Shown here: in pieces, positions 4,268-43,833 of the stretch
How positions within the stretch are numbered: the stretch's first letter is position 1
How the letters are laid out: each line of letters opens with the position of its first letter
Assembly (NCBI RefSeq): GCF_035084215.1
Contig: NW_027138580.1
Span: 496,001-560,000, forward strand
DNA length: 64,000 nucleotides
DNA from: Heptranchias perlo
Taxonomy: Eukaryota
Reading direction: 5' to 3'
Translations under genes and position numbers: made by a program
Notes under the pieces: model-generated
Told to the model about the DNA's origin: nothing
The model's database searches: none
The model's input: the letters and a program-made list of their open reading frames with translations, nothing else

Positions 4268-5068
4268 AGTGTTTGATGGGACAGCGTAGAGGGAGCTTTA
4301 CTCTGTATCTAACCCGTGCTGTACCTGCCCTGGGAGTGTTTGATGGGACAGCGTAGAGGGAGCTTTACTCTGTATCTAACCCGTGCTGTACCTGCCCCGG
4401 GAGTGTTTGATGGGACAGTGTAGAGGGAGCTTTACTCTGTATCTAACCCGTGCTGTCCCTGCCCTGGGAGTGTTTGATGGGACAGTGTGGAGGGAGCTTT
4501 ACTCTGTATCTAACCCGTGCTGTACCTGCCCTGGGAGTGTTTGATGGGACAGTGTAGAGGGAGCTTTACTCTGTATCTAACCCGTGCTGTACCTGCCCCG
4601 GGAGTGTTTGATGGGACAGTGTAGAGGGAGCTTTACTCTGCATCTAACCCGTGCTGTACCTGTCCTGGGAGTGTTTGATGGGACAGTGTAGAAGGAGCTT
4701 TACTCTGTATCTAACCCGTGCTGTACCTGCCCCGGGAGTGTTTGATGGGACGGTGTGGAGGGAGCTTTACTCTGTATCTAACCCGTGCTGCACCTGCCCC
4801 GGGAGTGTTTGATGGGACGGTGTGGAGGGAGCTTTACTCTGTATCTAACCCGTGCTGTCCCTGCCCCGGGAGTGTTTGATGGGACAGTGTAGAGGGAGCT
4901 TTACTCTGTATCTAACCCGTGCTGTACCTGCCCTGGGAGTGTTTGATGGGACAGTGTAGAGGGAGCTTTACTCTGTATCTAACCCGTGCTGTACCTGCCC
5001 CGGGAGTGTTTGATGGGACAGTGCAGAGGGAGCTTTACTCTGTATCTAACCCGTGCTGTTCCTGCCCC
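4268..5068 (+). repeat. 67-bp minisatellite (GGGAGTGTTTGATGGGACAGTGTAGAGGGAGCTTTACTCTGTATCTAACCCGTGCTGTACCTGCCCT)
   Basis: Unit starts at 4332, 4399 and onward (67-bp spacing), about 12 copies. The same family occurs inverted at 32017-33865. Confidence 0.95.
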
Positions 5069-6605
5069 GGGAGTGTTTGATGGGACAGTGCGGAGGGAGC
5101 TTTACTCTGTCCCTGCCCCGGGAGTGTTTGATGGGACAGTGTAGAGTGAGATTTACTCTGTCCCTGCCCCGGGAGTGTTTGATGGGACAGTGCGGAGGGA
5201 GATTTACTCTGTCCCTGCCCCGGGAGGGTTTGATGGGACAGTGCGGAGGGAGATTTACTCTGTCCCTGCCCCGGGAGGGTTTGATGGGACAGTGCGGAGG
5301 GAGATTTACTCTGTCCCTGCCCCGGGAGGGTTTATGGGACAGTGTGGAGGGAGATTTACTCTGTCCCTGCCCCGGGAGTGTTTGATGGGACAGTGCGGAG
5401 GGAGATTTACTCTGTCCCTGCCCCGGGAGGGTTTGATGGGACAGTGCGGAGGGAGATTTACTCTGTCCCTGCCCCGGGAGGGTTTGATGGGACAGTGTGG
5501 AGGGAGATTTACTCTGTCCCTGCCCTGGGAGTGTTTGATGGGACAGTGCGGAGGGAGATTTACTCTGTCCCTGCCCCGGGAGGGTTTGATGGACAGTGCG
5601 GAGGGAGATTTACTCTGTCCCTGCCCCGGGAGGGTTTATGGGACAGTGTGGAGGGAGATTTACTCTGTCCCTGCCCCGGGAGGGTTTGATGGGACAGTGT
5701 GGAGGGAGATTTACTCTGTCCCTGCCCTGGGAGTGTTTGATGGGACAGTGCGGAGGGAGATTTACTCTGTCCCTGCCCCGGGAGGGTTTGATGGACAGTG
5801 CGGAGGGAGATTTACTCTGTCCCTGCCCCGGGAGGGTTTGATGGGACAGTGTGGAGGGAGATTTACTCTGTCCCTGCCCCGGGAGGGTTTGATGGGACAG
5901 TGCGGAGGGAGATTTACTCTGTCCCTGCCCCGGGAGTGTTTGATGGGACAGTGCGGAGGGAGATTTACTCTGTCCCTGCCCCGGGAGGGTTTGATGGGAC
6001 AGTGAGGAGGGAGATTTACTCTGTCCCTGCCCCGGGAGTGTTTGATGGGACAGTGCGGAGGGAGATTTACTCTGTCCCTGCCCCGGGAGTGTTTGATGGG
6101 ACAGTGCGGAGGGAGATTTACTCTGTCCCTGCCCCGGGAGGGTTTGATGGGACAGTGTGGAGGGAGATTTACTCTGTCCCTGCCCCGGGAGTGTTTGATG
6201 GGACAGTGCGGAGGGAGATTTACTCTGTCCCTGCCCCGGGAGGGTTTGATGGGACAGTGCGGAGGGAGATTTACTCTGTCCCTGCCCCGGGAGTGTTTGA
6301 TGGGACAGTGCGGAGGGAGATTTACTCTGTCCCTGCCCCGGGAGTGTTTGATGGGACAGTGCGGAGGGAGATTTACTCTGTCCCTGCCCCGGGAGTGTTT
6401 GATGGGACAGTGCGGAGGGAGATTTACTCTGTCCCTGCCCCGGGAGGGTTTGATGGGACAGTGCGGAGGGAGATTTACTCTGTCCCTGCCCCGGGAGGGT
6501 TTGATGGGACAGTGCGGAGGGAGATTTACTCTGTCCCTGCCCCGGGAGGGTTTGATGGACAGTGCGGAGGGAGATTTACTCTGTCCCTGCCCCGGGAGGG
6601 TTTGA
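5069..6605 (+). repeat. 51-bp minisatellite derived from the 67-bp unit by a 16-bp deletion
   Basis: Unit GGGAGTGTTTGATGGGACAGTGCGGAGGGAGATTTACTCTGTCCCTGCCCC. It produces the 17-aa repeat ORFs (REIYSVPAPGGFDGTVR). Confidence 0.95.
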
Positions 6606-8263: not shown

Positions 8264-9355
8264 TCAGTCCTGGATGTGATTAACAGCAGCGATAACAGCA
8301 GAATCCAACACGTGAACTCGCTGGTGCCTCAGCAGGTAGGACGAGCGGGTGAATCCCTTCCCGCACACGGAGCAGGTGAACGGCCTCTCCCCGGTGTGAA
8401 CCCGCTGGTGAGCCAGCAGGTGTGCCGACATCCTGAAGCTCTTCCCGCACTGGGCGCAGCTGAAGGGCCTCTCCCCGGTGTGAATGCGCTGGTGGGACAG
8501 CAGGTTGGAGGACTGAGTGAATCCCTTCCTGCACACGGGGCAGGTGAAGGGCCTCTCCCCGGTGTGGATGAGCTGGTGGGTCAGCAGGTGGGACGACATC
8601 CTGAAGCCCTTCCCGCACTGGGAGCACCGGAACGGCCGCTCGTCGGTGTGGATCTGCTTGTGCTTCTTCAGCTCCTCGGTGCTCTTGAAACTCTTGCCGC
8701 AGTCGCTGCAGGCGAAGGGCCGCTCCTCAGTGTGCACCCGCTGGTGGGTCAGCAGGTTGGAGGACTGGGTGAACCCCTTCCCACAGAGCGGGCAGACGAA
8801 CGGCCGCTCGCCGGTGTGGACCCGCTGGTGGGTCAGCAGGTGCGAGGGCTTGGTGAACCCCTTCCCGCAGACCGAGCAGATGAACAGCCACTCGCCGCTG
8901 TGGACCCGCTGGTGGGTCAGCAGGCTGGACGACTCGGTGAAGCCCTTCCCGCAGGCGGAGCAGACGAACGGCCGCTCGCCGGTGTGGATGCGCCGGTGGA
9001 TCTCCAGTTTGGACGGGTAGCTGAACCCCTTGCCGCAGTCCCCGCACTTGTAGGGCTGCTCCCTGCCCGCCCCCGGGCCGGCCGGGCGGCCAAAGGCGAG
9101 GCCGCGCAGGCACAGCTTCTCCCCGCTGCGCCTGCTCAGGCCAGGTAACTGGTCAGCCCGCGGGAACCCTCTGCCCCGGGCAGGCCCCTCCGGCTGCTTT
9201 TCCAGCCACACCGCTGTCTCGAGTCTCTTCTCGCACACAAACATTTCCCCCTCCACGCTCATAGGCCGGTAATATTCAGGTCCCGGGGATTCGAGGGGCT
9301 CTGTCACACGGTGACGGGATGTTTCGCTTGAGTTTCCCGTCTGCAAATCGTCCAT
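8264..9355 (-). CDS. C2H2 zinc-finger protein (ZNF-A), 9 fingers, 363 aa from the first exon-internal ATG
   Basis: Nine C-x2-C-x12-H-x3-H fingers with TGERPF-type linkers. Acceptor TTTCTTGTGCAG|G puts the exon start at 9365, ATG at 9355 (MDDLQTGNS…). AATAAA on the minus strand at 8167-8172. An upstream coding exon cannot be excluded. Confidence 0.88.
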
Positions 9356-19081: not shown

Positions 19082-22000
19082 AACACCAATCCCACAGACA
19101 CCGACACCAATCTCCTCCTGTCTGATATAAACCAATTCCAGTCACTGACACCAATCTCCTCCTGTCTGATATGAACCAATCCCACACTCACTGACACCAA
19201 TCTCCTCCTGTCTGATATAAACCAATCCCACACTCACTGACACCAATCTCCTCCTGTCTGATATAAACCAATCCCAGTCACTGACACCAATCTCCTCCTG
19301 TCTGATATAAACCAATCCCAGTCACTGACACCAATCTCCTCCTGTCTGATATAAACCAATCCCACACTCACTGACACCAATCTCCTCCTGTCTGATATAA
19401 ACCAATCCCACACTCACTGACACCAATCTCCTCCTGTCTGATATAAACCAATCCCAGTCACTGACACCAATCTCCTCCTGTCTGATATAAACCAATCCCA
19501 GTCACTGACACCAATCTCCTCCTGTCTGATATAAACCAATCCCAGTCACTGACACCAATCTCCTCCTGTCTGATATAAACCAATCCCACACTCACTGACA
19601 CCAATCTCCTCCTGTCTGATATAAACCAATCCCACACTCACTGACACCAATCTCCTCCTGTCTGATATAAACCAATCCCAGTCACTGACACCAATCTCCT
19701 CCTGTCTGATATAAACCAATCCCACACTCACTGACACCAATCTCCTCCTGTCTGATATAAACCAATCCCAGTCACTGACACCAATCTCCTCCTGTCTGAT
19801 ATAAACCATTCCCAGTCACTGACACCAATCTCCTCCTGTCTGATATAAACCAATCCCAGTCACTGACACCAATCTCCTCCTGTCTGATATAAACCAATCC
19901 CAGTCACTGACACCAATCTCCTCCTGTCTGATATAAACCAATCCCACACTCACTGACACCAATCTCCTCCTGTCTGATATAAACCAATCCCAGTCACTGA
20001 CACCAATCTCCTCCTGTCTGATATAAACCAATCCCACACTCACCGACACCAATCTCCTCCTGTCTGATATAAACCAATCCCAGTCACTGACACCAATCTC
20101 CTCCTGTCTGATATAAACCAAACCCAGTCACTGACACCAATCTCCTCCTGTCTGATATAAACCAATCCCACACTCACTGACACCAATCTCCTCCTGTCTG
20201 ATATAAACCAATCCCACACTCACTGACACCAATCTCCTCCTGTCTGATATAAACCAATCCCAGTCACTGACACCAATCTCCTCCTGTCTGATATAAACCA
20301 ATCCCAGTCACTGACACCAATCTCCTCCTGTCTGATATAAACCAATCCCAGTCACTGACACCAATCTCCTCCTGTCTGATATAAACCAATCCCACACTCA
20401 CTGACACCAATCTCCTCCTGTCTGATATAAACCAATCCCAGTCACTGACACCAATCTCCTCCTGTCTGATATAAACCAATCCCAATCACCGACACCAATC
20501 TCCTCCTGTCTGATATAAACCAATCCCAGTCACTGACACCAATCTCCTCCTGTCTGATATAAACCAATCCCACACTCACTGACACCAATCTCCTCCTGTC
20601 TGATATAAACCAATCCCACACTCACTGACACCAATCTCCTCCTGTCTGATATAAACCAATCCCAGTCACCGACACCAATCTCCTCCTGTCTGATATAAAC
20701 CAATCCCAGTCACCGACACCAATCTCCTCCTGTCTGATATAAACCAATCCCAATCACCGACACCAATCTCCTCCTGTCTGATATAAACCAATCCCAGTCA
20801 CTGACACCAATCTCCTCCTGTCTGATATAAACCAATCCCACACTCACTGACACCAATCTCCTCCTGTCCGATATAAACCAATCCCACACTCACTGACACC
20901 AATCTCCTCCTGTCTGATATAAACCAATCCCACACTCACTGACACCAATCTCCTCCTGTCTGATATAAACCAATCCCACACTCACTGACACCAATCTCCT
21001 CCTGTCTGATATAAACCAATCCCAGTCACTGACACCAATCTCCTCCTGTCTGATATAAACCAATCCCACACTCACTGACACCAATCTCCTCCTGTCTGAT
21101 ATAAACCAATCCCAGTCACTGACACCAATCTCCTCCTGTCTGATATAAACCAATCCCAGTCACTGACACCAATCTCCTCCTGTCTGATATAAACCAATCC
21201 CACACTCACTGACACCAATCTCCTCCTGTCTGATATAAACCAATCCCACACTCACTGACACCAATCTCCTCCTGTCTGATATAAACCAATCCCACTCACT
21301 GACACCAATCTCCTCCTGTCTGATATAAACCAATCCCAGTCACTGACACCAATCTCCTCCTGTCTGATATAAACCAATCCCACTCACTGACACCAATCTC
21401 CTCCTGTCTGATATAAACCAATCCCACACTCACTGACACCAATCTCCTCCTGTCTGATATAAACCAATCCCAGTCACTGACACCAATCTCCTCCTGTCTG
21501 ATATAAACCAATCCCACTCACTGACACCAATCTCCTCCTGTCTGATATAAACCAATCCCAGTCACTGACACCAATCTCCTCCTGTCTGATATAAACCAAT
21601 CCCACACTCACTGACACCAATCTCCTCCTGTCTGATATAAACCAATCCCAGTCACTGACACCAATCTCCTCCTGTCTGATATAAACCAATCCCAGTCACC
21701 GACACCAATCTCCTCCTGTCTGATATAAACCAATCCCAGTCACTGACACCAATCTCCTCCTGTCTGATATAAACCAATCCCAGTCACTGACACCAATCTC
21801 CTGCTGTCTGATGTAAACCAATCCCAGTCACCGACACCAATCTCCTCCTGTCTGATATAAACCAATCCCACTCACTGACACCAATCTCCTCCTGTCTGAT
21901 ATAAACCAATCCCACACTCACTGACACCAATCTCCTCCTGTCTGATATAAACCAATCCCAGTCACTGACACCAATCTCCTCCTGTCTGATATAAACCAAT

Positions 22001-22348
22001 CCCACTCACTGACACCAATCTCCTCCTGTCTGATATAAACCAATCCCAGTCACTGACACCAATCTCCTCCTGTCTGATATAAACCAATCCCACACTCACT
22101 GACACCAATCTCCTCCTGTCTGATATAAACCAATCCCAGTCACTGACACCAATCTCCTCCTGTCTGATATAAACCAATCCCAGTCACTGACACCAATCTC
22201 CTCCTGTCTGATATAAACCAATCCCAGTCACTGACACCAATCTCCTCCTGTCTGATATAAACCAATCCCAGTCACTGACACCAATCTCCTCCTGTCTGAT
22301 ATAAACCAATCCCACACTCACTGACACCAATCTCCTCCTGTCTGATAT
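19082..22348 (+). repeat. 44/46-bp satellite (CACTGACACCAATCTCCTCCTGTCTGATATAAACCAATCCCA[GT|CACT]), about 70 copies
   Basis: 44-bp spacing (e.g. 19261 to 19305) mixed with 46-bp variants. Very homogeneous. The reverse complement lies at 59844-64000. Confidence 0.97.
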
Positions 22349-22962: not shown

Positions 22963-23772
22963 TCAAGTGTGAACTTGCTGGTGCCTCAGCAGGTAGGAGG
23001 ACCGGGTGAATCCCTTCCCGCACACGGAGCAGGTGAACGGCCTCTCTCCCCTGTGCACTTGCTGGTGGGTCAGCAGGCTGGACGATCGCTTAAACCTCTT
23101 CTCACAGTGAGTGCACCTGAAGGGCCTCTCGTCCGTGTGAATGCGCTGGTGGATCAAAAGCTCTTCCGAGCTGCGGAAGCTCTTCCCGCAGTCAGAGCAG
23201 GTGAAGGGCCTCTCGTCCGTGTGAATGCGCTGGTGTCTCAGCAGGCTGGACGACTGAGTGAATCCCTTCCCGCAGTAAGGGCACCTGAACGGCCTCTCCC
23301 CGGTGTGAATGCGCTGGTGTTTCACCAGCTCCTCAGAGCTTTTAAAGCCCTTCCCACAGTCGGAGCATTTAAAGCGTCTCTCGTCGGTGTGAACCCGCTG
23401 GTGCGTCAGCATGTTGGAGGACTGAGTGAATCCCTTCCCACACACGGAGCAGGTGAACGGCCTCTCCCCGGTGTGGCTGTGCCGATGAGTTTCCAGCTCC
23501 GACGGGTAATTGAATCCCTTCCCGCAGTCCCCACACTGATACGGTTGCTCCCCGGTGTGGCCGCGTCTGTGCCTCAACATGTTGGATGATTGGCTGAAGG
23601 CCCGTCCACACAACGAACAGATGTACGGTATCCTACTCTTGTGATTGGTGCTTTCTCCTTCCGCATTCAAAGGCCGACGATATTCAGGTCCTGATGAATC
23701 GAGGGACTCGGTCAGATCTTGACGTGAGGTTTGGTTTGAGTTTCCCGTCTGCAAATACTCCCCTTCTAACAT
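22963..23772 (-). CDS. C2H2 zinc-finger protein (ZNF-B), 8 fingers, 269 aa
   Basis: Eight intact fingers. Acceptor AAACTCCTTTTTACAG|G is followed immediately by ATG ([16 protein letters not shown]…). AATAAA on the minus strand at 22851-22856. Confidence 0.9.
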
Positions 23773-29419: not shown

Positions 29420-30373
29420 ATGGAAGAACAAGGCGCCGATCACAGCAGCGACAGACCGTACCCGTGCTCCGTGTGCGGACGAGCCTTCAGCCGATCGTCC
29501 AACCTGGCGAGGCACGAGCGCAGCCACGCCGGGGGGCAACCGTGTGACTGTGCCGACGCCGAGCAGGGATTTCCGTGCCAATCCCAGCCGGGAAAACATT
29601 GCCACAGCCGCACCGGGGAGAGGCCCTACACCTGCTCCGTGTGCGGGAAGGGATTCACTCAGTCCTCCCACCTGCGGACACACCAGCGCATTCACACCGG
29701 GGAGAGGCCCTACACCTGCTCCGTGTGTGGGAAGGGATTCAATTCTTCCTTTCACCTGCTGAGACACCAACTGGTTCACACTGACGAGAGACCTTTCGGA
29801 TGCTCTGACTGCGGGAGCAGCTTTAAAAGTCCCGAGTTGTTGTCCCAGCACCAGCGCGTTCATAGCGAGGAGAGACCGTTCGGTTGCTCGCGATGCACCA
29901 AGAGGTTCAGACGACCGTCCAGCCAGCTGACGCACCGGTGCACTCACGCTGGAGACAGGCTGTTGACCTGCCCTGTGTGCGGGAAGGGATTCACTCGTTC
30001 ATCCCACCTGCTGATGCACCAGCGTATTCACACCGGGGAGAGGCCGTTCACCTGCTCCGTGTGTGGGAAGGGATTCACCCACTCGTCCAACCTGCTGAGA
30101 CACCAGCGGGTCCACACCGGGGAGAGGCCGTTCACCTGCTCCGCGTGCGGGAAGGGATTCACTCAGTCCTCCAACCTGCTGACCCACCAGCGGGTTCACA
30201 CCGGGGAGAGGCCGTTCACCTGCTCCGTGTGCGGGAAGGGGTTCACTTGTTCATCCTACCTGCTGACCCACCAGCACGTTCACACCGGGGAGAGGCCGTT
30301 CACCTGCTCCGTGTGTGGGAAGGGATTCACTCAGTCCTCCCACCTGCTGAGACACCAGCGTACTCACGTTTGA
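29420..30373 (+). CDS. C2H2 zinc-finger protein (ZNF-C), 10 intact plus 1 degenerate finger
   Basis: Acceptor AAACTCCTTTTGACAG|G puts the exon start at 29341. First in-frame ATG at 29420 (MEEQGAD…). The ORF-track start 29360 is TTG. Second finger is degenerate (CDCADAEQGF…HCHSR). Confidence 0.88.
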   Translation: MEEQGADHSSDRPYPCSVCGRAFSRSSNLARHERSHAGGQPCDCADAEQGFPCQSQPGKHCHSRTGERPYTCSVCGKGFTQSSHLRTHQRIHTGERPYTCSVCGKGFNSSFHLLRHQLVHTDERPFGCSDCGSSFKSPELLSQHQRVHSEERPFGCSRCTKRFRRPSSQLTHRCTHAGDRLLTCPVCGKGFTRSSHLLMHQRIHTGERPFTCSVCGKGFTHSSNLLRHQRVHTGERPFTCSACGKGFTQSSNLLTHQRVHTGERPFTCSVCGKGFTCSSYLLTHQHVHTGERPFTCSVCGKGFTQSSHLLRHQRTHV

Positions 30374-32016: not shown

Positions 32017-33865
32017 CATCAAACACTCCCAGGGCAGGTACAGCATGGGTGACATACAGAGTAAAACCCCCTCTACACTGTTCCATCAAACACGCCGGGG
32101 GCAGGTACAGGGTTGGATACAGAGTAAAGCTCCCTCTACACTGTCCCATCAAACACTCCCAGGGCAGGTACAGCACGGGTTAGATACAGAGTAAAGCTCC
32201 CTCTACGCCGTCCCGTCAAACACTCCCAGTGCAGGTACAGCACGAGTTAGATACGGAGTAAAGCTCCCTCCACGCCGTCCCATCAAACACTACCAGGGCA
32301 GGTACAGCACGGGTTAGATACGGAGTAAAGCTCCCTCTACGCCGTCCCATCAAACACTCCCAGGGCAGGTACAGCACGGGTTAGATACAGAGTAAAGCTC
32401 CCTCTACGCCGTCCCATCAAACACTCCCAGGGCAGGTACAGCACGGGTTAGATACGGAGTAAAGCTCCCTCCACACTGTCCCATCAAACACTCCCAGGGC
32501 AGGTACAGCACGGGTTAGATACAGAGCAAAGCTCCCTCTACGCCGTCCCGTCAAACACTCCCAGTGCAGGTACAGCACGGGTTAGATACAGAGTAAAGCT
32601 CCCTCTACACTGTCCCATCAAACACTCCCAGGGCAAGTACAGCACGGGTTAGATACAGAGTAAAGCTCCCTCTACACTGTCCCATCACACATTGCCAGGG
32701 CAGGTGCAGCATGGGTTAGATACAGAGTGAAAACCCCCTCCACACTCTACAATCAAACACTCCCAGTGCAGGTACAGCACGGGTTAGATACAGAGTAAAG
32801 CTCCCTCTACACTGTCCCATCACACATTGCCAGGGCAGGTGCAGCATGGGTTAGATACAGAGTAAAGCTCCCTCCACACTCTACAATCAAACACTCCCAG
32901 GGCAGGGACAGCACGGGTTAGATACAGAGTAAAGCTCCCTCTACACTGTCCCATCACACATTGCCAGGGCAGGTGCAGCATGGGTTAGATACAGAGTAAA
33001 GCTCCCTCTACACTGTCCCATCAAACACTCCCAGGGCAGGGACAGCACAAGTTAGATACAGAGTAAAGCTCCCTCTACACTGTCCCGTCAAACATTCCCA
33101 GGGCAGGTACAGCACGGGTTAGATACAGATTAAAGCTCCCTCTACACTGTCCAATTAAACACTCCCAGGGCAGGTACAGCACAGGTTAGATACAGAGTAA
33201 AGCTCCCTCGACACTGTCCCATCAAACACTCCCAGGGCAGGTACAGCACGGGTTAGATACAGAGTAAAGCTCCCTCTACACTGTCCCATCAAACACTCCC
33301 AGGGCAAGTACAGCACGGGTTAGATACGGAGTAAAGCTCCCTCCACACTCTACAATCAAACACTCCCAGTGCAGGTACAGCACGGGTTAGATACAGAGTA
33401 AAGCTCCCTCTACACTGTCCCATCAAACACTCCCAGGGCAGGGACAGCACAAGTTAGATACAGAGTAAAGCTCCCTCTACACTGTCCCGTCAAACATTCC
33501 CAGGGCAGGTACAGCACGGGTTAGATACAGATTAAAGCTCCCTCTACACTGTCCAATTAAACACTCCCAGGGCAGGTACAGCACAGGTTAGATACAGAGT
33601 AAAGCTCCCTCGACACTGTCCCATCAAACACTCCCAGGGCAGGTACAGCACGGGTTAGATACAGAGTAAAGCTCCCTCTACACTGTCCCATCAAACACTC
33701 CCAGGGCAGGTACAGCACGGGTTAGATACAGAGTAAAGCTCCCTCAACACTGTCCCATCAAACACTCCCTGGGCAGGTACAGCACGGGTTAGATATGGAG
33801 TAAATCTCCCTTTACACTGTCCCATCAAACACTCCCAGGGCAGGTACAGCACGGGTTAGATACAA
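32017..33865 (-). repeat. 67-bp minisatellite, same family as 4268-5068, inverted
   Basis: Unit CCATCAAACACTCCCAGGGCAGGTACAGCACGGGTTAGATACAGAGTAAAGCTCCCTCTACACTGTC, about 27 copies. Confidence 0.95.
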
Positions 33866-34852: not shown

Positions 34853-36684
34853 GAATCCAAAGAGCTTCTACAAATACATAAAGGGCAAAAGAGTAACTAG
34901 GGAGAGAGTAGGGCCTCTTAAGGATCAACAAGGTCATCTATGTGTGGAACCACAAGGGATGGGTGAGATCCTGAATGAATATTTCACATCGGTATTTACG
35001 GTTGAGAAAGGCATGGATGTTAGGGAACTTGGGGAAATAAATAGTGATGTCTTGAGGAGTGTACATATTACAGAGAGGGAGGTGCTGGAAGTCTGAACGC
35101 TCATCAAGGTAGATAAATCTCCGGGACCTGATGAAATGTATCCCAGGACGTTATGGGAGGTTAGGGAGGAAATTGCGGGTCCCCTAGCAGAGATATTTGA
35201 ATCATCCACCACTACAGGTGAGGTGCCTGAAGATTGGAGGGTAGCAAATGTTGTGCCTTTGTTTAAGAAGGGCGGCAGGGAAAAGCCTGGGAACTACAGA
35301 CCGGTGAGCCTGACATCTGTAGTGGGTAAGTTGTTCGAGGGTATTCTGAGGGACAGGATCTACAGGCATTTGGAGAGGCAGGGACTAATTAGGAACAGTC
35401 AGCATGGTTTTGTGAGAGGAAAATCATGTCTCACGAATTTGATTGAGTTTTTTGAAGGGGTAACCAAGAAGATAGATGAGGGCTGTGCAGTAGACGTGGT
35501 CTACATGGACTTCAGCAAAGCCTTTGACAAGGTGCCGCATGGTAGGTTGTTACATAAGGTTAAATCTCATGGGATCCAAGGTGAGGTAGCTAATTGGATA
35601 CAAAATTGGCTTGACGACAGAAGACAGAGGGTGGTTGTAGAGGGTTGTTTTTCAAACTGGATGCCTGTGTCCAGCGGTGTGCCTCAGGGATCGGTGCTGG
35701 GTCCGCTGTTATTTGTTATTTATATTAATGATTTGGATGAGAATTTAGGAGGCATGGTTAGTAAGTTTGCAGATGACACCAAGATTGGTGGCATTGTGGA
35801 CAGTGAAGAAGGTTATCTAGGATTGCAACGGGATCTTGATAAATTGGGCCACTGGGCCGATGAATGGCAGATGGAGTTTAATTTAGATAAATGTGAGGTG
35901 ATGCATTTTGGTAGATCGAATCGGGCCAGGACCTACTCCGTTAATGGTAGGGCGTTGGGGAGAGTTATAGAACAAAGAGATCTAGGAGTACAGGTTCATA
36001 GCTGCTTGAAAGTGGAGTCACAGGTGGATAGAGTGGTGAAGAAGGCATTCGGCATGCTTGGTTTCATTGGTCAGAACATTGAATGCAGGAGTTGGGATGT
36101 CTTGTTGAAGTTGTACAGGGCATTGGTGAGGCCACACTTGGAGTACTGTGTACAGTTCTGGTCACCCTATTATAGAAAGGATATTATTAAACTAGAAAGA
36201 GTGCAAAAAAGATTTACTAGGATGCTACCGGGACTTGATGGTTTGACTTATAGGGAGAGGTTAGACAGACTGGGACTTTTTTCCCTGGAGAGTAGGAGGT
36301 TAAGGGGTGATCTTATAGAAGTCTATAAAATAATGAGGGGCATAGATAAGGTAGATAGTCAAAATCTTTTCCCAAAGGTAGGGGAGTCTATAACGAGGGG
36401 GCATAGATTTAAGGTGAGAGGGGAGAGATACAAAAGGGTCCAGAGGGGCAATTTTTTCACTCAAAGGGTGGTGAGTGTCTGGAAAGAGCTGCCAGAGGCA
36501 GTAGTAGAGGCGGGTACAATTTTGTCTTTTAAAAAGCATTTGGACAGTTACATGGGTAAGATGGGTATAGAGGGATATGGGCCAAGTGCAGGCAATTGGG
36601 ACTAGCTTAGTCGTATAAACTGGGCGACATGGACATGTTGGGCCGAAGGGCCTGTTTCCATGTTGTAACTTCTATGATTCTATG
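34853..36684 (+). mobile_element. CR1 LINE, 5'-truncated, with an intact RT domain (ORF 35136-36605)
   Basis: NYRPVSLTSVVGK, DFSKAFDKVPH, GVPQGSVLGP, KFADD. One TGA at 35094-35096 and no endonuclease domain. Tail TTCTATGATTCTATG. Inserted into a satellite unit at CAGCACAG|TATTACTAG. Confidence 0.95.
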
Positions 36685-38970
36685 TATTACTAGACTGATA
36701 TATAATGTGTACAGCACTGTATTACTAGACTAATATATAATGTGTACAGTACTGTATTACTAGACTAATATATAATGTGTACAGTACTGTATCACTCGAC
36801 TAATATATAATGTGTACAGCACTATTACTAGACTAATAATATATAATGTGTACAGTACTGTATTACTAGACTAATAATATGTGTACAGTACTGTATTACT
36901 AGACTAATATATAATGTGTACAGTACTGTATTACTAGACTGATAATATATAATGTGTACAGCACTGTATTACTAGACTGATATATAATGTGTACAGCACT
37001 GTATTACTAGACTAATATATAATGTGTACAGTACTGTATCACTCAACTAATAATATATAATGTGTACAGTACTGTATTACTAGACTAATAACATATAATG
37101 TGTACAGTACTGTATTACCAGACTAATGCATACAGTACTGTATTACTGGACGAATATAATGTGTACAGTACTGTATTACGAGACTAATAATACATAATGT
37201 GTACAGCACTGTATTACTAGACTAATAATACATAATGTGTACAGTACTGTATTACTAGACTAATAATATATAATGTGTACAGTACTGTATTACGAGACTA
37301 ATAATGTGTGTACAGCACTGTGTTACTAGACTAATATATAATGTGTACAGTACTGTATTAATCGACGAATAAATAATCTGTACAGTACTGTATTACTAGA
37401 CTAATGCATACAGTACTGTATTACTGGACTAATATGTGTACAGTACTGTATTACGAGACTAATAATATATAATGTGTACAGTACTGTATTACTAGACCAA
37501 TATATAATGTGTACAGTACTCTATTACTAGACTAATATAATGTGTACAGTACTGTATTACTAGACTAATATATAATGTGTACAGTACTGTATTACTAGAC
37601 TAATATATAATGTGTACAGTACTGTATGACTCGACTAATATATAATGTGTACAGCACTGTATTACTAGACTAATAATATAGAATGTGTACAGTACTGTAT
37701 TACTAGACTAATATATAATGTGTACAGCACTGTATTACTAGACTAATAATATATAATGTGTACAGTACTGTATTACTAGACTAATATATAATGTGTACAG
37801 TACTGTATCACTCAACTAATAATATATAATGTGTACAGTACTGTATTACTAGACTAATAACATATAATGTGTACAGTACTGTATTACCAGACTAATAATG
37901 TGTGTACAGCACTGTATAACTAGACTAATATATAATGTGTACAGTACTGTATTAATCGACGAATAAATAATCTGTACAGTACTGTATTACTAGACTAATG
38001 CATACAGTACTGTATTACTGGACTAATGTGTACAGTACTGTATTACGAGACTAATAATATAAAATGTGTACAGTACTGTATTACTAGACTAATATATAAT
38101 GTGTACAGTACTGTATTACGAGACTAATATATAATGTGTACAGCACTGTATTACTAGACCAATAATATATAATGTGTACAGTACTGTATGACTAGACTAA
38201 TAATATATAGTGTGTACAGCACTGTATTACTAGACTAATATATAATGTGTACAGTACTGTATTACTAGACTAATAATATTTAATGTGTACAGTACTGTAT
38301 TACTAGATTAATAATATATAATGTGTACAGTACTGTATTACTAGACTAATAATATATAATGTGTACAACACTATGACTAGACTAATAACATATAATGTGT
38401 ACAGTACTGCATTACTAGACTAATATATAATGTGCACAGCACTATTACTAGACTAATGATATATAATGTGTACAGTACTGTATTACTAGACTAAAATATG
38501 TGTACAGCACTGTATTACTAGACTAATAATATATAATGTGTACAGTACTATTACTAGACTAATAACATATAATGTGTACAGTACTGTATTACTAGACTAA
38601 TAATATATAATGTGTACAGCACTATTACTAGACTAATAACATATAATGTGTACAGTACTGTATTACTAGACGAATAAATAAACTGTACAGTACTATTACT
38701 AGACTAATGTGTACAATACTGTATTACTAGACTAATATATAATGTGTACAGCACTGTATTACAAGACGAATAATATATAATGTGTACAGTACTGTATTAC
38801 TAGACTGATATATAATGTGTACAGCACTATTACTAGACTAATAATATATAATGCGTAAGTACTGTATTACTAGACTAATATATGTGTACAGCACTATTAC
38901 TAGACTAATAATATATAATGTAAACAATTTTACAACACCAAGTTATAGTCCAACAATTTTTATTTGAAAT

Positions 38971-39008
38971 CTACAAGCTTTCGGAGGCTTCCTCCTTCGT
39001 CAGGTAAA
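38971..39008 (-). ncRNA. Minimal type-I hammerhead ribozyme motif (solo Penelope pLTR fragment)
   Basis: Minus strand reads TTTAC-CTGACGA-A-GGAGG-AAG-CCTCC-GAAA-GCTT-GTAGA. It has the CUGANGA and GAAA core, a 5-bp stem II, palindromic AAGCUU at stem III and stem I UAC/GUA. Confidence 0.8.
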
Positions 39009-40654
39009 TGTGTAAGTACTGTATTACTGGACTAATATATGTGTACAGCACTGTATTACTAGACTAATAATATGCACAGTACTGTATTACTAGACTAATA
39101 ATATATAATGTATACAGTACTGTATTACTAGACTAATAATATATAATGTTTACAGCACTATTACTAGACTAATAATATATAATGTGTACAGTACTGTATT
39201 ACTAGACTGATATCTTATGTGCACAGTACTGTATTACTAGATTAATGTGTACAGTACTGTATTGCTAGATTAATAATGTGTACAGTACTGTATTTCTAGA
39301 CTAATATCTAATGTGTACAGTACTGTATTACTAGACTAATAATATATAATGTGTACAGTACTGTATTACTAGACTAATAAGTAATGTGCACAGCACTGTA
39401 TTACTAGACTAATATATAATGTGTACAGTACTGTATTACTAGACTAATAATATGTGTACAGTACTGTACTACTAGACTGATCTAATGTGTACAGTACTGT
39501 ATTACTAGACTAATAATAGAAAATGTGTACAGTACTGTATTACTAGACTAATAATATATAATGTGTACAGCACTATGACTAGACTAATAACATATAATGT
39601 GTACAGCACTGTATTCCTAGACTAATAATATATAATGTGTACAGTACTGTATTACTAGACTGATATATAATGTGTACAGCACTATTACTAGACTAATAAT
39701 ATATAATGTGGACAGTACTGTATTACTAGACTAATAATATATAATGTGTACAGTACTGTATTACTAGACTGATATCTTATGTGCACAGTACTGTATTACT
39801 AGATTAATGTGTACAGTACTGTATTGCTAGATTAATAATGTGTACAGTACTGTATTTCTAGACTAATATCTAATGTGTACAGTACTGTATTACTAGACTA
39901 ATAATATAGTGTACAGCACTATTACTAGACTAATAATATATAATGTGTACAGTACTGTATTACTAGACTGATATATAATGTGTACAGTACTGTATTACTA
40001 GACTAATATATGTGTACAGTACTGTATTACTAGACTAATATATAATGTGTACAGTACTGTATTACTAGACTAATATATAATGTGTACAGCACTGTATTAC
40101 TAGACTAATATATAATGTGTACAGTACTGTATTACTAGACTAATAATATGTGTACAGTACTGTATTACTAGACTAATATATAATGTGTACAGTACTGTAT
40201 TACTAGACTAATATATAATGTGTACAGTACTGTATTACTAGACTAATAATATGTGTACAGTACTGTATTACTAGACTAATATATAATGTGTACAGTACTG
40301 TATTACTAGACTAATATATAATGTGTACAGTACTGTATTACTAGACTAATATATAATGTGTACAGTACTGTATTACTAGACTAATATATAATGTGTACAG
40401 TACTGTATTACTAGACTAATATATAATGTGTACAGTACTGTATTACTAGACTAATATATAATGTGTACAGTACTGTATTACTAGACTAATATATAATAAT
40501 ACCCTGCTCACTGTTTACTCTCTGATTACATTGGAAATATCTCTGTCTTCTTTGTCTGCAGAGAGGAGCTCCCCACCCCTCCACCTCACTCCCTCTCCCC
40601 CCGGGTGAACTGTCGAGGGGATCCCCGTGCCCCCTCCCCGGGTGAACTGTTGGG

Positions 40655-41490: not shown

Positions 41491-41585
41491 TCCATTACTG
41501 GATGTGGAGATGCCGGTGATGGACTGGGGTTGACAATTGGAAACAATTTTACACCAAGTTATAGTCCAACAAATTTATTTTAAAT

Positions 41586-41624
41586 CCCACAAGTTTTCGG
41601 AGGCTTCCTCCTTCCTCAGGTGAA
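41586..41624 (-). ncRNA. Minimal type-I hammerhead ribozyme motif in the 3' pLTR (stem III palindrome mutated)
   Basis: Minus strand reads TTCAC-CTGAGGA-A-GGAGG-AAG-CCTCC-GAAA-ACTT-GTGGG. Confidence 0.7.
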
Positions 41625-41808
41625 CGGTGTGGAAATGACATTTTCGAATCCTTCGCATTTGAAAATCACAGAACAAAGCCTGGTGATGACTGCCCGTTGC
41701 CAAGGCAATCACAGTGAGCAGACAGAAAGGTGTCACCTAAAAGGCCACCGAATATACAAACCCCCCCAAAAAAAGAGAGAGAAGGAAGACAGTCAATGAC
41801 CCGTTATA

Positions 41809-43410
41809 TTAAAAACAGATAACATTTGTTCGCTGGTGGGGTAACGTGTAGTGTGACATGAACCCAAGATCCCGGTTGAGGCCGTCCTCATGGGTGCGGA
41901 ACTTGGCTATCAATTTCTGCTCGACGATTTTGCGTTGTCGTGTGTCTCGAAGGCCGCCTTGGAGAACGCTTACCCGAAGGTCGGTGGCTGAATGTCCATG
42001 ACTGCTGAAGTGTTCCCCGACTGGGAGGGAACCCTCCTGTTTGGCGATTGTTGCGCGGTGTCCGTTCATCCGTTGTGGCAGCGTCTGCATGGTCTCGCCA
42101 ATGCACCATGCTCCGGGGCATCCTTTCCTGCAACGTATGAGGTAGACAACGTTGGCCGAGTCACAGGAGTATGAACCGTGCACCTGGTGGGTGGTGTCCT
42201 CTCGTGTGATGGTGGTATCTGTGTCGATGATCTGGCATGTCTTGCAGAGGTTACCGTGGCAGGGTTGTGTGGTGTCGTGGACGCTGTTCTCCTGAAAGCT
42301 GGGTAATTTGCTGCGAACGATGGTTTGTTTGAGGTTGGGTGGCTGTTTAAAGGCGAGTCGTGGAGGTGTGGGGATGGCCATAGCGAGGTGTTCGTCATCA
42401 TTGATGACATGTTGAAGGCTGCGGAGAACATGGCGTAGTTTCTCCGCTCCGGGGAAGTACTGGACAACGAAGGGTACTCTGTTGGTTGCGTCCCGTGTTA
42501 GTCTTCTGAGGAGGTCTACGCGATTTTTCGCTGTGGCCCGTCGGAACTGTCGATCGATGAGTCGAGCGTCATATCCCGTTCTTACTAGGGCGTCTTTCAG
42601 CGTCTGTAGGTGTCCATCGCGTTCCTCCTCGTCTGAGCAGACCCTGTGCATTCGCAGGGCCTGTCCAAAGGGGATGGCCTCTTTGACGTGGTTAGGGTGG
42701 AAGCTGGAAAAGTGGAGCATCGTGAGGTTGTCCGTGGGCTTGCGGTAGAGTGAGGTGCTGAGGTGCCCGTCTTTGATGGAGATTCGTGTGTCCAAGAAAG
42801 AAACTGATTCTGAGGAGTAGTCCATGGTGAGCTTGATGGTGGGATGGAACTTGTTGATGTTATCGTGTAGTCTCTTTAGTGATTCCTCGCCGTGGGTCCA
42901 TGGAAAGAAAATGTCGTCGATGTATCTGGTGGATAGTGTTGGTTGGAGGTCCTGTGCAGTGAAGAAGTCCTGCTCGAACTTGTGCATGAAAATGTTGGCG
43001 TATTGGGGTGCGCATTTGGTCCCCATGGCTGTTCCGTGTGTTTGGGTAAAGAACTGGTTATTGAAGGTGAAGACATTGTGATCCAGGACGAAGCGGATGA
43101 GTTGTAGGATGGCGTCTGGAGATTGGCTGTTGTTGGTGTTGAGTATTGATGCTGTCGCAGCGATGCCGTCATCGTGGGGGATACTGGTGTAGAGTGCCGA
43201 GACGTCCATCGTGGTGAGAAGTGTTCCTGGTTCAACAGGTCCGTGGGTACTGAGTTTTTGTAAAAAGTCTGTAGTGTCGCGATAGAAGCTGGGGGTTCCC
43301 TGCACGATGGGTTTCAGGATGCCCTCGAAGTATCCAGAGAGGTTCTCACACAGGGTTCTGTTGCCTGATACGATAGGACGTCCGGGTGTGTTGGCTTTGT
43401 GTATCTTCGG
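41809..43410 (-). pseudogene. Penelope RT plus GIY-YIG endonuclease reading frame (N-terminally truncated)
   Basis: Uninterrupted frame from PKIHK (43410) to the stop at 41809. The 28 N-terminal codons of the 561-aa ORF come from the inverted repeat. The YIG motif reads CIG. Confidence 0.85.
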
Positions 43411-43762
43411 GTAAGCATACTCCAAGGCGGCCTTCGAGACACACGACAACGCAAAATCGTCGAGCAGAAATTGATAGCCAAGTTCCGCACCCATGAGGAC
43501 GGCCTCAACCGGGATCTTGGGTTCATGTCACACTACACGTAACCCCACCAGCGAACAAATGTTATCTGTTTTTAATATAACGGGTCATTGACTGTCTTCC
43601 TTCTCTCTCTCTTTTTTTTGGGGGGGTTTGTATATTCGGTGGCCTTTTAGGTGACACCTTTCTGTCTGCTCACTGTGATTGCCTTGGCAACGGGCAGCAA
43701 TCACCAGGCTTTGTTCCGTGATTTTCAAATGCAAAGGATTCGAAAATGTCATTTCCATACCG

Positions 43763-43801
43763 TTCACCTGAGGAAGGAGGAAGCCTCCGAAAGCTTGTGG
43801 A
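43763..43801 (+). ncRNA. Minimal type-I hammerhead ribozyme motif in the inverted pLTR
   Basis: TTCAC-CTGAGGA(43768)-A-GGAGG-AAG-CCTCC-GAAA(43789)-GCTT-GTGGA. Confidence 0.8.
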
Positions 43802-43833
43802 ATTTAAAATAAATCCATTACTGGAGGAAGAGA

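Follow-up and report, generated by a model that had tools for sequence, protein, structure and literature searches.

A short Penelope-like terminal-repeat insert in an AT-rich satellite of Heptranchias perlo, and relatives whose 5' ends follow the leader sequence

The window, i.e., the whole stretch of 64,000 nucleotides analysed (positions 496,001 to 560,000 of contig NW_027138580.1 of Heptranchias perlo), holds an AT-rich satellite that is interrupted by a short insert. The following features define the insertion, with all positions counted from the first letter of the window:

36683..40497, no strand: AT-rich satellite with a 35-38-bp repeat, the insertion target.
38919..39011, minus strand: short Penelope-like insert at its widest extent, of which 85 bp (38922-39006) are certain.
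38919..38968, minus strand: 3' part of the insert unit, which stops at the closer of the two 3' end points that are common among copies and is without the 35-40-nt tail.
38917..38921, plus strand: 5-nt overlap of satellite and element (AATGT) at the 3' junction, a short duplication or microhomology; the target is ATT on the minus strand.
39007..39011, plus strand: 5 nt (AATGT) at the 5' junction that fit the satellite as well as the element, microhomology.

An earlier note, made from the sequence of the window, had described the satellite as broken by a piece of about 90 bp resembling the end of a Penelope terminal repeat (pLTR), and this was borne out. The interruption consists of 85-93 bp of non-satellite DNA on the minus strand and is 86.8% identical, over 91 alignment columns, to 41538-41624 of a longer Penelope-like copy in the same window, and 90.2% identical over 51 to 43763-43813 in the inverted arm of that copy. 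Its length is given as a range because the 5 nt at each junction fit both the satellite and the element, and its 5' edge may lie anywhere from -3 to -8 relative to C3 of the hammerhead described below. The 5-bp repeat at its borders was rejected as a clean target site duplication (TSD) since both copies overlap element sequence. The insert itself has no tail and no inverted arm, and any duplication is at most 5 bp. Contig C413 has it three times with identical flanks (99.3% and 93.5% across some 600 bp), and this therefore represents one insertion that was duplicated afterwards. The insert is almost certainly a terminal-repeat stub of a Penelope-like element (PLE), and on its own it is ordinary, a real stub of a known kind. 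The alternative filing in the same note, as a heavily truncated Penelope copy, was the right one, to which it can be added that the truncation point is specific.

The longer copy is a separate element of another subfamily and comprises:

41501..43404, minus strand: 5'-truncated Penelope-like copy with reverse transcriptase (RT), linker C-x4-C-x2-C, GIY-YIG-type end, pLTR with hammerhead, and tail.
43405..43814, plus strand: inverted 410-bp arm, 96.8% identical to 41573-41979, with a second hammerhead.
41492-41500 and 43815-43823: 9-bp target duplication.

It had been taken for a full element, and this did not hold, as it is not full length and its open reading frame (ORF) begins within the RT.

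The insert contains a minimal type-I hammerhead, numbered here by comparison with published PLE hammerheads (PMC4209133):

38969..39009, minus strand: the hammerhead as a whole.
39009-39004 paired with 38974-38969, minus strand: stem I.
39003-38997, minus strand: core CUGACGA.
38996, minus strand: bulged A.
38995-38983, minus strand: stem II, 5 bp.
38982-38979, minus strand: GAAA.
Positions 15.2/16.2 of the hammerhead, minus strand: palindromic GC.
Between 38975 and 38974, minus strand: predicted cut.

The CUGACGA core, the bulged A, the 5-bp stem II, the GAAA, the GCUU and the predicted cut site are all intact. With a CUGANGA and GAAA core, U16.1 and H17 the motif belongs to the minimal type-I hammerheads of PLEs, and its bulged nucleotide between 9 and 10.1, its G10.1-C11.1 pair and its loopless palindromic 15.2-16.2 agree with what is described for this group, namely the lack of a helix III loop, the palindrome at 15.2-16.2, a bulge before stem II, G10.1-C11.1 and a short helix I (PMC4209133). 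Alignment confirmed the intact core and the differences reported earlier: stem I reads UAC/GUA and N7 is C in the insert, against CAC/GUG and G in both hammerheads of the longer element. The palindromic stem III that had been ascribed to these ribozymes is present in the insert and absent from one hammerhead of the longer element (GAAAACUU at 41619). A search of Rfam left the hammerhead families unmatched and returned four weak unrelated matches. In a 53-nt piece with the hammerhead both stems I and II appear in the minimum-energy fold (z -2.0, 7 of 200 shuffles being as good), and in the whole 92-nt unit stem I is absent from that fold (z -0.03). A palindrome duplex has a predicted energy of -5.7 kcal/mol, and cleavage would probably need a second copy or a protein.

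Copies were collected from the 3.25-Gb genome by exact-pattern searches. A 40-mer across the hammerhead of the insert has 393 exact matches, a 41-mer of its 3' part 6,549 and a 35-nt hammerhead pattern 27,765, with no match to any of the three in the control. The sister subfamily that had been postulated exists, and besides the 393 exact 40-mers it has short, long and full-length members. In one full-length copy of the insert's own subfamily (L251) a distance of 3,062 bp separates two hammerheads, between which lies an ORF split across two frames, of 269 and 706 aa, with a match to RVT_1 (E = 6e-11); a GIY-YIG-like stretch with two cysteines was recognized by eye, Pfam giving no match for it. 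After the first hammerhead of L251 follow the 3' part, the tail and then, directly, the ATG of the ORF. The sequence of the insert therefore plays two parts, closing the 3' pLTR and serving the ORF that follows as its leader, and in full-length tandem copies it corresponds to the stretch of leader that runs from the predicted RNA start as far as the nearer 3' end site. The family has the traits of EN+ PLEs: L251 carries an ORF with RT and C-terminal GIY-YIG-type domain between pLTRs, and sister copies show a tail, inverted 5' arms and a variable TSD. The C-x4-C-x2-C linker of L251 and of the longer copy in the window corresponds, by motif and not by RT tree, to the CX2-5CxxC before the endonuclease that is found in Neptune and Nematis and not in Penelope or Poseidon according to the portion of PMC8557442 covered. 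The 3' ends fall at two sites, as 92 of 167 copies match 0-9 nt of the tail and 71 match 37-42 nt. Among solo copies 15 of 32 rows have a target duplication of their own of 8-14 bp. The hammerhead and 3' haplotype do not differ between short and long copies, and the short ones are without a TATA-like box.

Samples for the 5' ends were the first listed matches on the first contigs, and the two arms of one insertion were counted as two copies unless stated otherwise. For subfamily A, to which the insert belongs, 97 of the first 100 listed copies were used, with 96 scored and the 97th as reference. The tabulation of endpoints that the earlier note had proposed gave, in this sample, a distribution far from random: 47 of the 96 copies end 1-9 nt before the core (-1 to -9 from C3) with a mode at -9 (17 copies), three end at -10 or -11, none at -12 to -17 and nine in a second pile at -18 to -22, and 30 extend at least 60 nt upstream. 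Position -9 lies 30 nt past the first T of a TATAAAT box, and TATA boxes are typically spaced about 30 nt from the start of transcription. The second pile lies about 19 nt after the TATA, and four of its nine ends come from two fold-backs at a palindrome; neither this pile nor L251, which starts at -22, fits a start 30 nt from the TATA box. For subfamily C, 60 regions followed in list order yielded 76 copies, found with a pattern that was anchored at -6; 38 copies end at -6 to -20, among them 23 at -15 to -20 around an Inr-like TCATTT with a mode at -16, and none at -21 to -38; a degenerate TATA-like box is found at -44. When ends at -6 to -11 are set against ends at -12 to -20 the counts are 33 and 8 in subfamily A versus 12 and 26 in subfamily C (p = 1.3e-5, or p = 0.0016 with one arm per locus), and the pile, judged by its modes at -9 and -16, moves by 7 nt. 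Upstream of the pile the rate of ends per nt falls from 0.084 to 0.006 in subfamily A and from 0.054 to 0.003 in subfamily C. The stop, about 28-31 nt after the TATA-like box, moves with the leader and not with the ribozyme. The suggestion that the fragment stops almost exactly at the 5' edge of the hammerhead holds within the ambiguity of -3 to -8 from C3, but this edge does not set the stop.

Further classes of copies give a more graded picture. In subfamily D (79 copies), for which the prediction was fixed beforehand, 12 copies end at -6 to -17, nine of these at -6 to -10 and one at -17, and these ends fit a start-site and a ribozyme-edge model alike. A model in which ends are set by an ATTT motif was ruled out by the same copies (9 of 12 at -6 to -10). 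Short copies are much rarer in subfamily D (12 of 75) than in subfamily C (38 of 76; p = 1.2e-5) despite an identical hammerhead, and the TATA box is perfect in D, where the pile is weak, and degenerate in C, where it is strong. Another 31 copies with a U-G pair in stem I, a second subfamily with mostly an A-type leader, have their mode again at -9, and 31 copies with C-G and N7 = C form a group at -14 to -19, about five rows of which are long copies misread without a reference. A first pooled test of end position against distance to the TATA-like box over 413 copies, in which a filter removed the shortest ends, gave rho = 0.13 (p = 0.13). Repeated with classes assigned from hammerhead-side sequence only, which left 52 of the 413 copies unclassifiable, the test gave rho = 0.36 (p = 7e-6, n = 146) with a slope of 0.58 ± 0.13 rather than 1. 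Five of six classes have their ends 27.5-31 nt from the TATA-like box. In the class at -41, seven values of -8 look like misassigned leaders.

Few copies end at the ribozyme itself. Among 98 tail-anchored copies, chosen without requiring an intact hammerhead, only 11 end within or 3' of it: seven have their start at +30 to +38, shortly 3' of the predicted cut, four inside the hammerhead and none exactly at the cut, and in several of the seven the partner arm crosses the cut. As starts at the cut site are rare, cut RNA is seldom the template. Many copies are arranged head to head, and the two arms of such pairs are not independent. Of 98 pairs within the retrieved loci, both arms are short in 55 and long in 38, and 5 pairs are mixed, whereas independent arms would give 47.5 mixed pairs (p = 3e-21), and exactly one arm carries the tail in 90 of the 98. 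The symmetry of arms in long pairs was left unused, arm length there being limited to half of the span. This coupling argues that stopping is a property of the template and not a per-enzyme accident at a structure.

It is likely that the insert is a short terminal-repeat copy made by run-off of reverse transcription at the predicted transcription start of the RNA. The endonuclease would have nicked the AT-rich satellite at ATT, and the RT would have primed internally, as reported for the anole element in vitro, some 85 nt into an RNA that starts just upstream of the hammerhead. Reverse transcription would then have run off the 5' end of the RNA, and the 5' end of the copy would have been joined through the 5-nt microhomology. 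The resulting stub, without a promoter of its own, would be dead, and the hammerhead would usually be uncut in the RNA that is copied. For head-to-head pairs both target ends may prime on one RNA region, and where this region lies near the RNA start both would run off; the insert in the window may represent a one-armed version of the same product. A PLE protein has been found in vitro to cut both strands of the target and extend them, to prime at a pair of adjacent internal sites and to use uncut RNA as its main template (PMC11167929), and together with the coupling of arms this makes two-ended priming and run-off the simplest reading. The RNA could be the leader of a full-length mRNA or, equally, a transcript from the promoter of a truncated copy. 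Some results lend no help to run-off at a capped start. In LINE-1 a cap-derived extra G is expected at the 5' end, and of 14 solos whose target duplication is clean and at least 8 bp long, 1 showed such a G. Run-on into the beginning of the ORF was not enriched in short copies (9 of 83 versus 6 of 67 long copies, p = 0.79). Contigs from four presumed-RNA runs of one sample have loose ends at L251:4459, where subfamilies differ, and contigs of this kind cannot show starts.

The best surviving alternative, still an unlikely one, is that the RT stalls or releases as soon as it has unwound the hammerhead (or a protein that binds there), and ends then pile up at the front edge of the ribozyme. This would account for the fact that all subfamilies have ends 20 nt or less from the core, for a slope on TATA distance well below 1, for the ends near stem I in subfamily D and for the missing cap signature. 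It does not explain the shift of the pile by 7 nt between subfamilies A and C, nor the much weaker pile that D shows with the same hammerhead. The five mixed pairs among 98 also count against a stall that acts independently on each arm because mixed pairs would then be common. Random 5' truncation, its ends attracted by short AT-rich microhomologies in the target, is already largely refuted and has very little probability left. Such truncation is typical of PLEs (PMC8557442), and a junction microhomology of 2-5 nt is present in this insert and in several solos, but the rate of ends falls 14- to 20-fold upstream of the pile although the sequence there is AT-rich as well, ends inside or 3' of the hammerhead are as few as stated above, and the ATTT prediction failed in subfamily D. 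We assign a similarly small chance to a fixed RNA 5' end that results from processing, by splicing or a nuclease, and not from the start of transcription. [quoted passage not shown] Least probable of all is the discrete, retrozyme-like mini-element of the earlier note, spreading as a unit of its own, for even though many solos have their own target duplications, one head-to-head junction recurs exactly (four of the 17 ends at -9; five pairs of equal spacing), a head-to-tail junction of the unit occurs in one contig of run X1 and a preprint derives animal retrozymes from pLTRs (10.64898/2026.07.22.740005), the subfamily includes long copies and the full-length L251, no variant turned up that is private to short copies and long ones share their hammerhead haplotype, 5' ends spread across 9 nt and 3' ends over two sites, the recurring junction occurs in two subfamilies with different hammerheads, the stubs are without a TATA-like box and their core decays, and a monomer spanning both sides of the cut is unlike the product of a circular retrozyme template.

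Much of what surrounds run-off at the transcription start is already in print, namely dispersed minimal hammerheads of truncated PLEs, opposite-strand pairs, tails and inverted arms (PMC4209133; PMC3846280; PMC8557442). The motif architecture and the compensatory families are those of metazoan PLE hammerheads (Cervera and De la Pena, 2014; PMC4209133), most of which are, as here, dispersed singly or as opposite-strand pairs and ascribed to truncated PLEs. In the portion of that article covered, the 5' ends of solos are neither mapped nor tied to a start site, and self-cleavage and circular templates are proposed, whereas starts at the cut are rare here. The insertion unit, with head-to-head arms, a 30-40-bp tail on one arm and TSDs of 8-14 bp, is that of EN+ PLEs, and a TATA-like and an Inr-like motif in the pLTR are shared with Pen2a_Av (PMC3846280; PMC8557442). 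In the parts of these two sources covered, head-to-head junctions are attributed to self-priming on an antisense template or left open, with no mention of a coupling of arm lengths. A promoter has been demonstrated in the pLTR of D. virilis Penelope, and it is TATA-less (PMC2377424).

The closest biochemical parallel is Poseidon PAc of the green anole, with two adjacent internal priming sites that bound the tail and, in vitro, cutting and extension of both target strands, an ATT preference, an uncut template and a protein-assisted hammerhead (Frangieh et al., 2024; PMC11167929). The two differ in that the ORF of PAc begins inside the hammerhead and contains the priming sites, whereas here the hammerhead and both end sites precede the ATG, and in that the protein here has a linker zinc-finger motif of Neptune/Nematis type. 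The main-text portion of PMC11167929 covered does not describe run-off at the RNA start for PAc. Non-LTR retrozymes are likewise short, non-coding, related to pLTRs, presumably dependent on PLE proteins and equipped with type-I hammerheads (PMC7761336; 10.64898/2026.07.22.740005). They consist, however, of tandem repeats of about 150-300 bp, each with a hammerhead, that yield circular RNA. Here a lone piece of 85-93 bp is continuous with an autonomous element, its sisters occur solo, head to head or in long elements, and by haplotype comparison, not by tree, it forms no sequence family of its own. In LTR elements minus-strand strong-stop DNA is a short cDNA that extends from an internal primer to the RNA 5' end; the short cDNA proposed here differs in being target-primed and integrated. 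In LINE-1 twin priming both target ends prime and an inversion results, with arms that copy different stretches, unlike the arms here, both of which copy one same stretch. No prior statement of start-site run-off, two-ended priming or arm coupling in PLEs was found in the open-access literature covered.

It is tempting to extend run-off to the population of stubs. The chances appear about even that some half of the insertions in most subfamilies are integrated strong-stop-like cDNAs, produced by two-ended priming and run-off at a capped start, and that tens of thousands of stubs map the start of each subfamily, explain head-to-head pLTRs and show a hammerhead that is almost always uncut in the RNA copied, pointing to a role outside template processing. 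If stubs are run-off products, each subfamily's start sites and the state of its template RNA could be read from genome sequence alone, and sharp predictions would follow for CAGE as well as for the in vitro system that exists. The stub population bears on how inverted and tandem ends of PLEs are formed as well as on the in vivo role of the minimal hammerhead.

The stem I change noted in the insert is a subfamily trait. Among 27,765 copies the pair concerned is U-G in 4,144 and C-A in 95, and a count by eye of the first 100 matches listed gave 78 C-G, 16 U-G, 6 U-A and no C-A. The route from C-G to U-A thus appears to lead through the wobble pair U-G, with C-A at the level of background decay. 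Across 17 recurring haplotypes this pair is C-G in 12, U-A in three, U-G in two and never unpaired, and three of 11 pairs are altered on both sides, so that helices I and II are kept by compensatory changes between families, as described for PLE hammerheads (PMC4209133); the haplotypes are related and the events therefore few, and the outer two pairs of stem I are often broken. The claim of selection on ribozyme structure stands for these changes between subfamilies and fails for the stub copies, in which the core is substituted at least as often as the loops. Private substitutions in 86 copies of the tail-anchored set number nine in the 12 core positions, seven in 17 stem positions and five in 11 loop or flank positions. 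As private changes hit the core freely, selection probably keeps the hammerhead by acting on the source elements rather than on stubs once inserted. The invariant core of alignment A2 was discarded as evidence since its copies were collected with an intact-core pattern. In the tail-anchored set the recurring changes fall in stems and at N7, with one CpG-type decay in addition.

Five unrelated loci, between them representing two of the Penelope-like subfamilies, carry the same head-to-head junction, in which one arm starts at -9 and the other at -5 (5' ends counted from C3 of the hammerhead core, minus being upstream) and the arms overlap by 2 nt (L016, L118, L123, L157, and L312). With this spacing, five pairs were present among the first 100 matches listed in a genome-wide search for a hammerhead pattern. 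In two further head-to-head pairs (L041 and L096) the arms start just 3' of the predicted hammerhead cut (+32/+36 in L041), and these pairs are candidates for copies of cleaved RNA.

A second pile of 5' ends was found at -20, at a short palindrome in the A-type leader, the type found in the insert's subfamily (L003, L007, L020, L111, L155, and L293), and may correspond to an additional start site or to a point of fold-back. In subfamily D (L221-L290) short copies, i.e., those with a 5' end near the hammerhead, are about one third as numerous as in the sister subfamilies even though its hammerhead is identical; its leader lacks the TCATTT stretch. In a single contig of a presumed RNA sequencing run (X1), the 131-nt leader unit of the full-length subfamily A copy (L251:4329-4459) appears to be joined head to tail, its end to its own start, which may reflect a tandem copy or a circle.

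The satellite carrying the insert occurs three times on one contig (G000:C413:534991, 611755, and 896780; L351-L353), with flanks that are 99.3% and 93.5% alike.

Other features of the window are as follows.

41501-43814, Penelope-like copy truncated at its 5' end, with an inverted arm of 410 bp and a 9-bp target duplication
8312-9038, 22967-23586, 29611-30360, and 53845-54401, arrays with an 84-bp period
19085-22348 and 59846-64000, 44-bp minisatellite, in opposite orientations
4268-5110 and 32017-33864, 67-bp minisatellite, in opposite orientations
58426-58905, 480 N (unreadable letters)

The inverted arm of the truncated copy ends before the usual 3' end point, and the hammerhead of its pLTR has lost the palindrome (GAAAACUU). 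Judged from their repeat consensus, the 84-bp-period arrays look like C2H2 zinc-finger exons; many minisatellites alternate with them. As the 44-bp and 67-bp minisatellites are each found twice in opposite orientation, an inverted duplication of cluster units is suggested.
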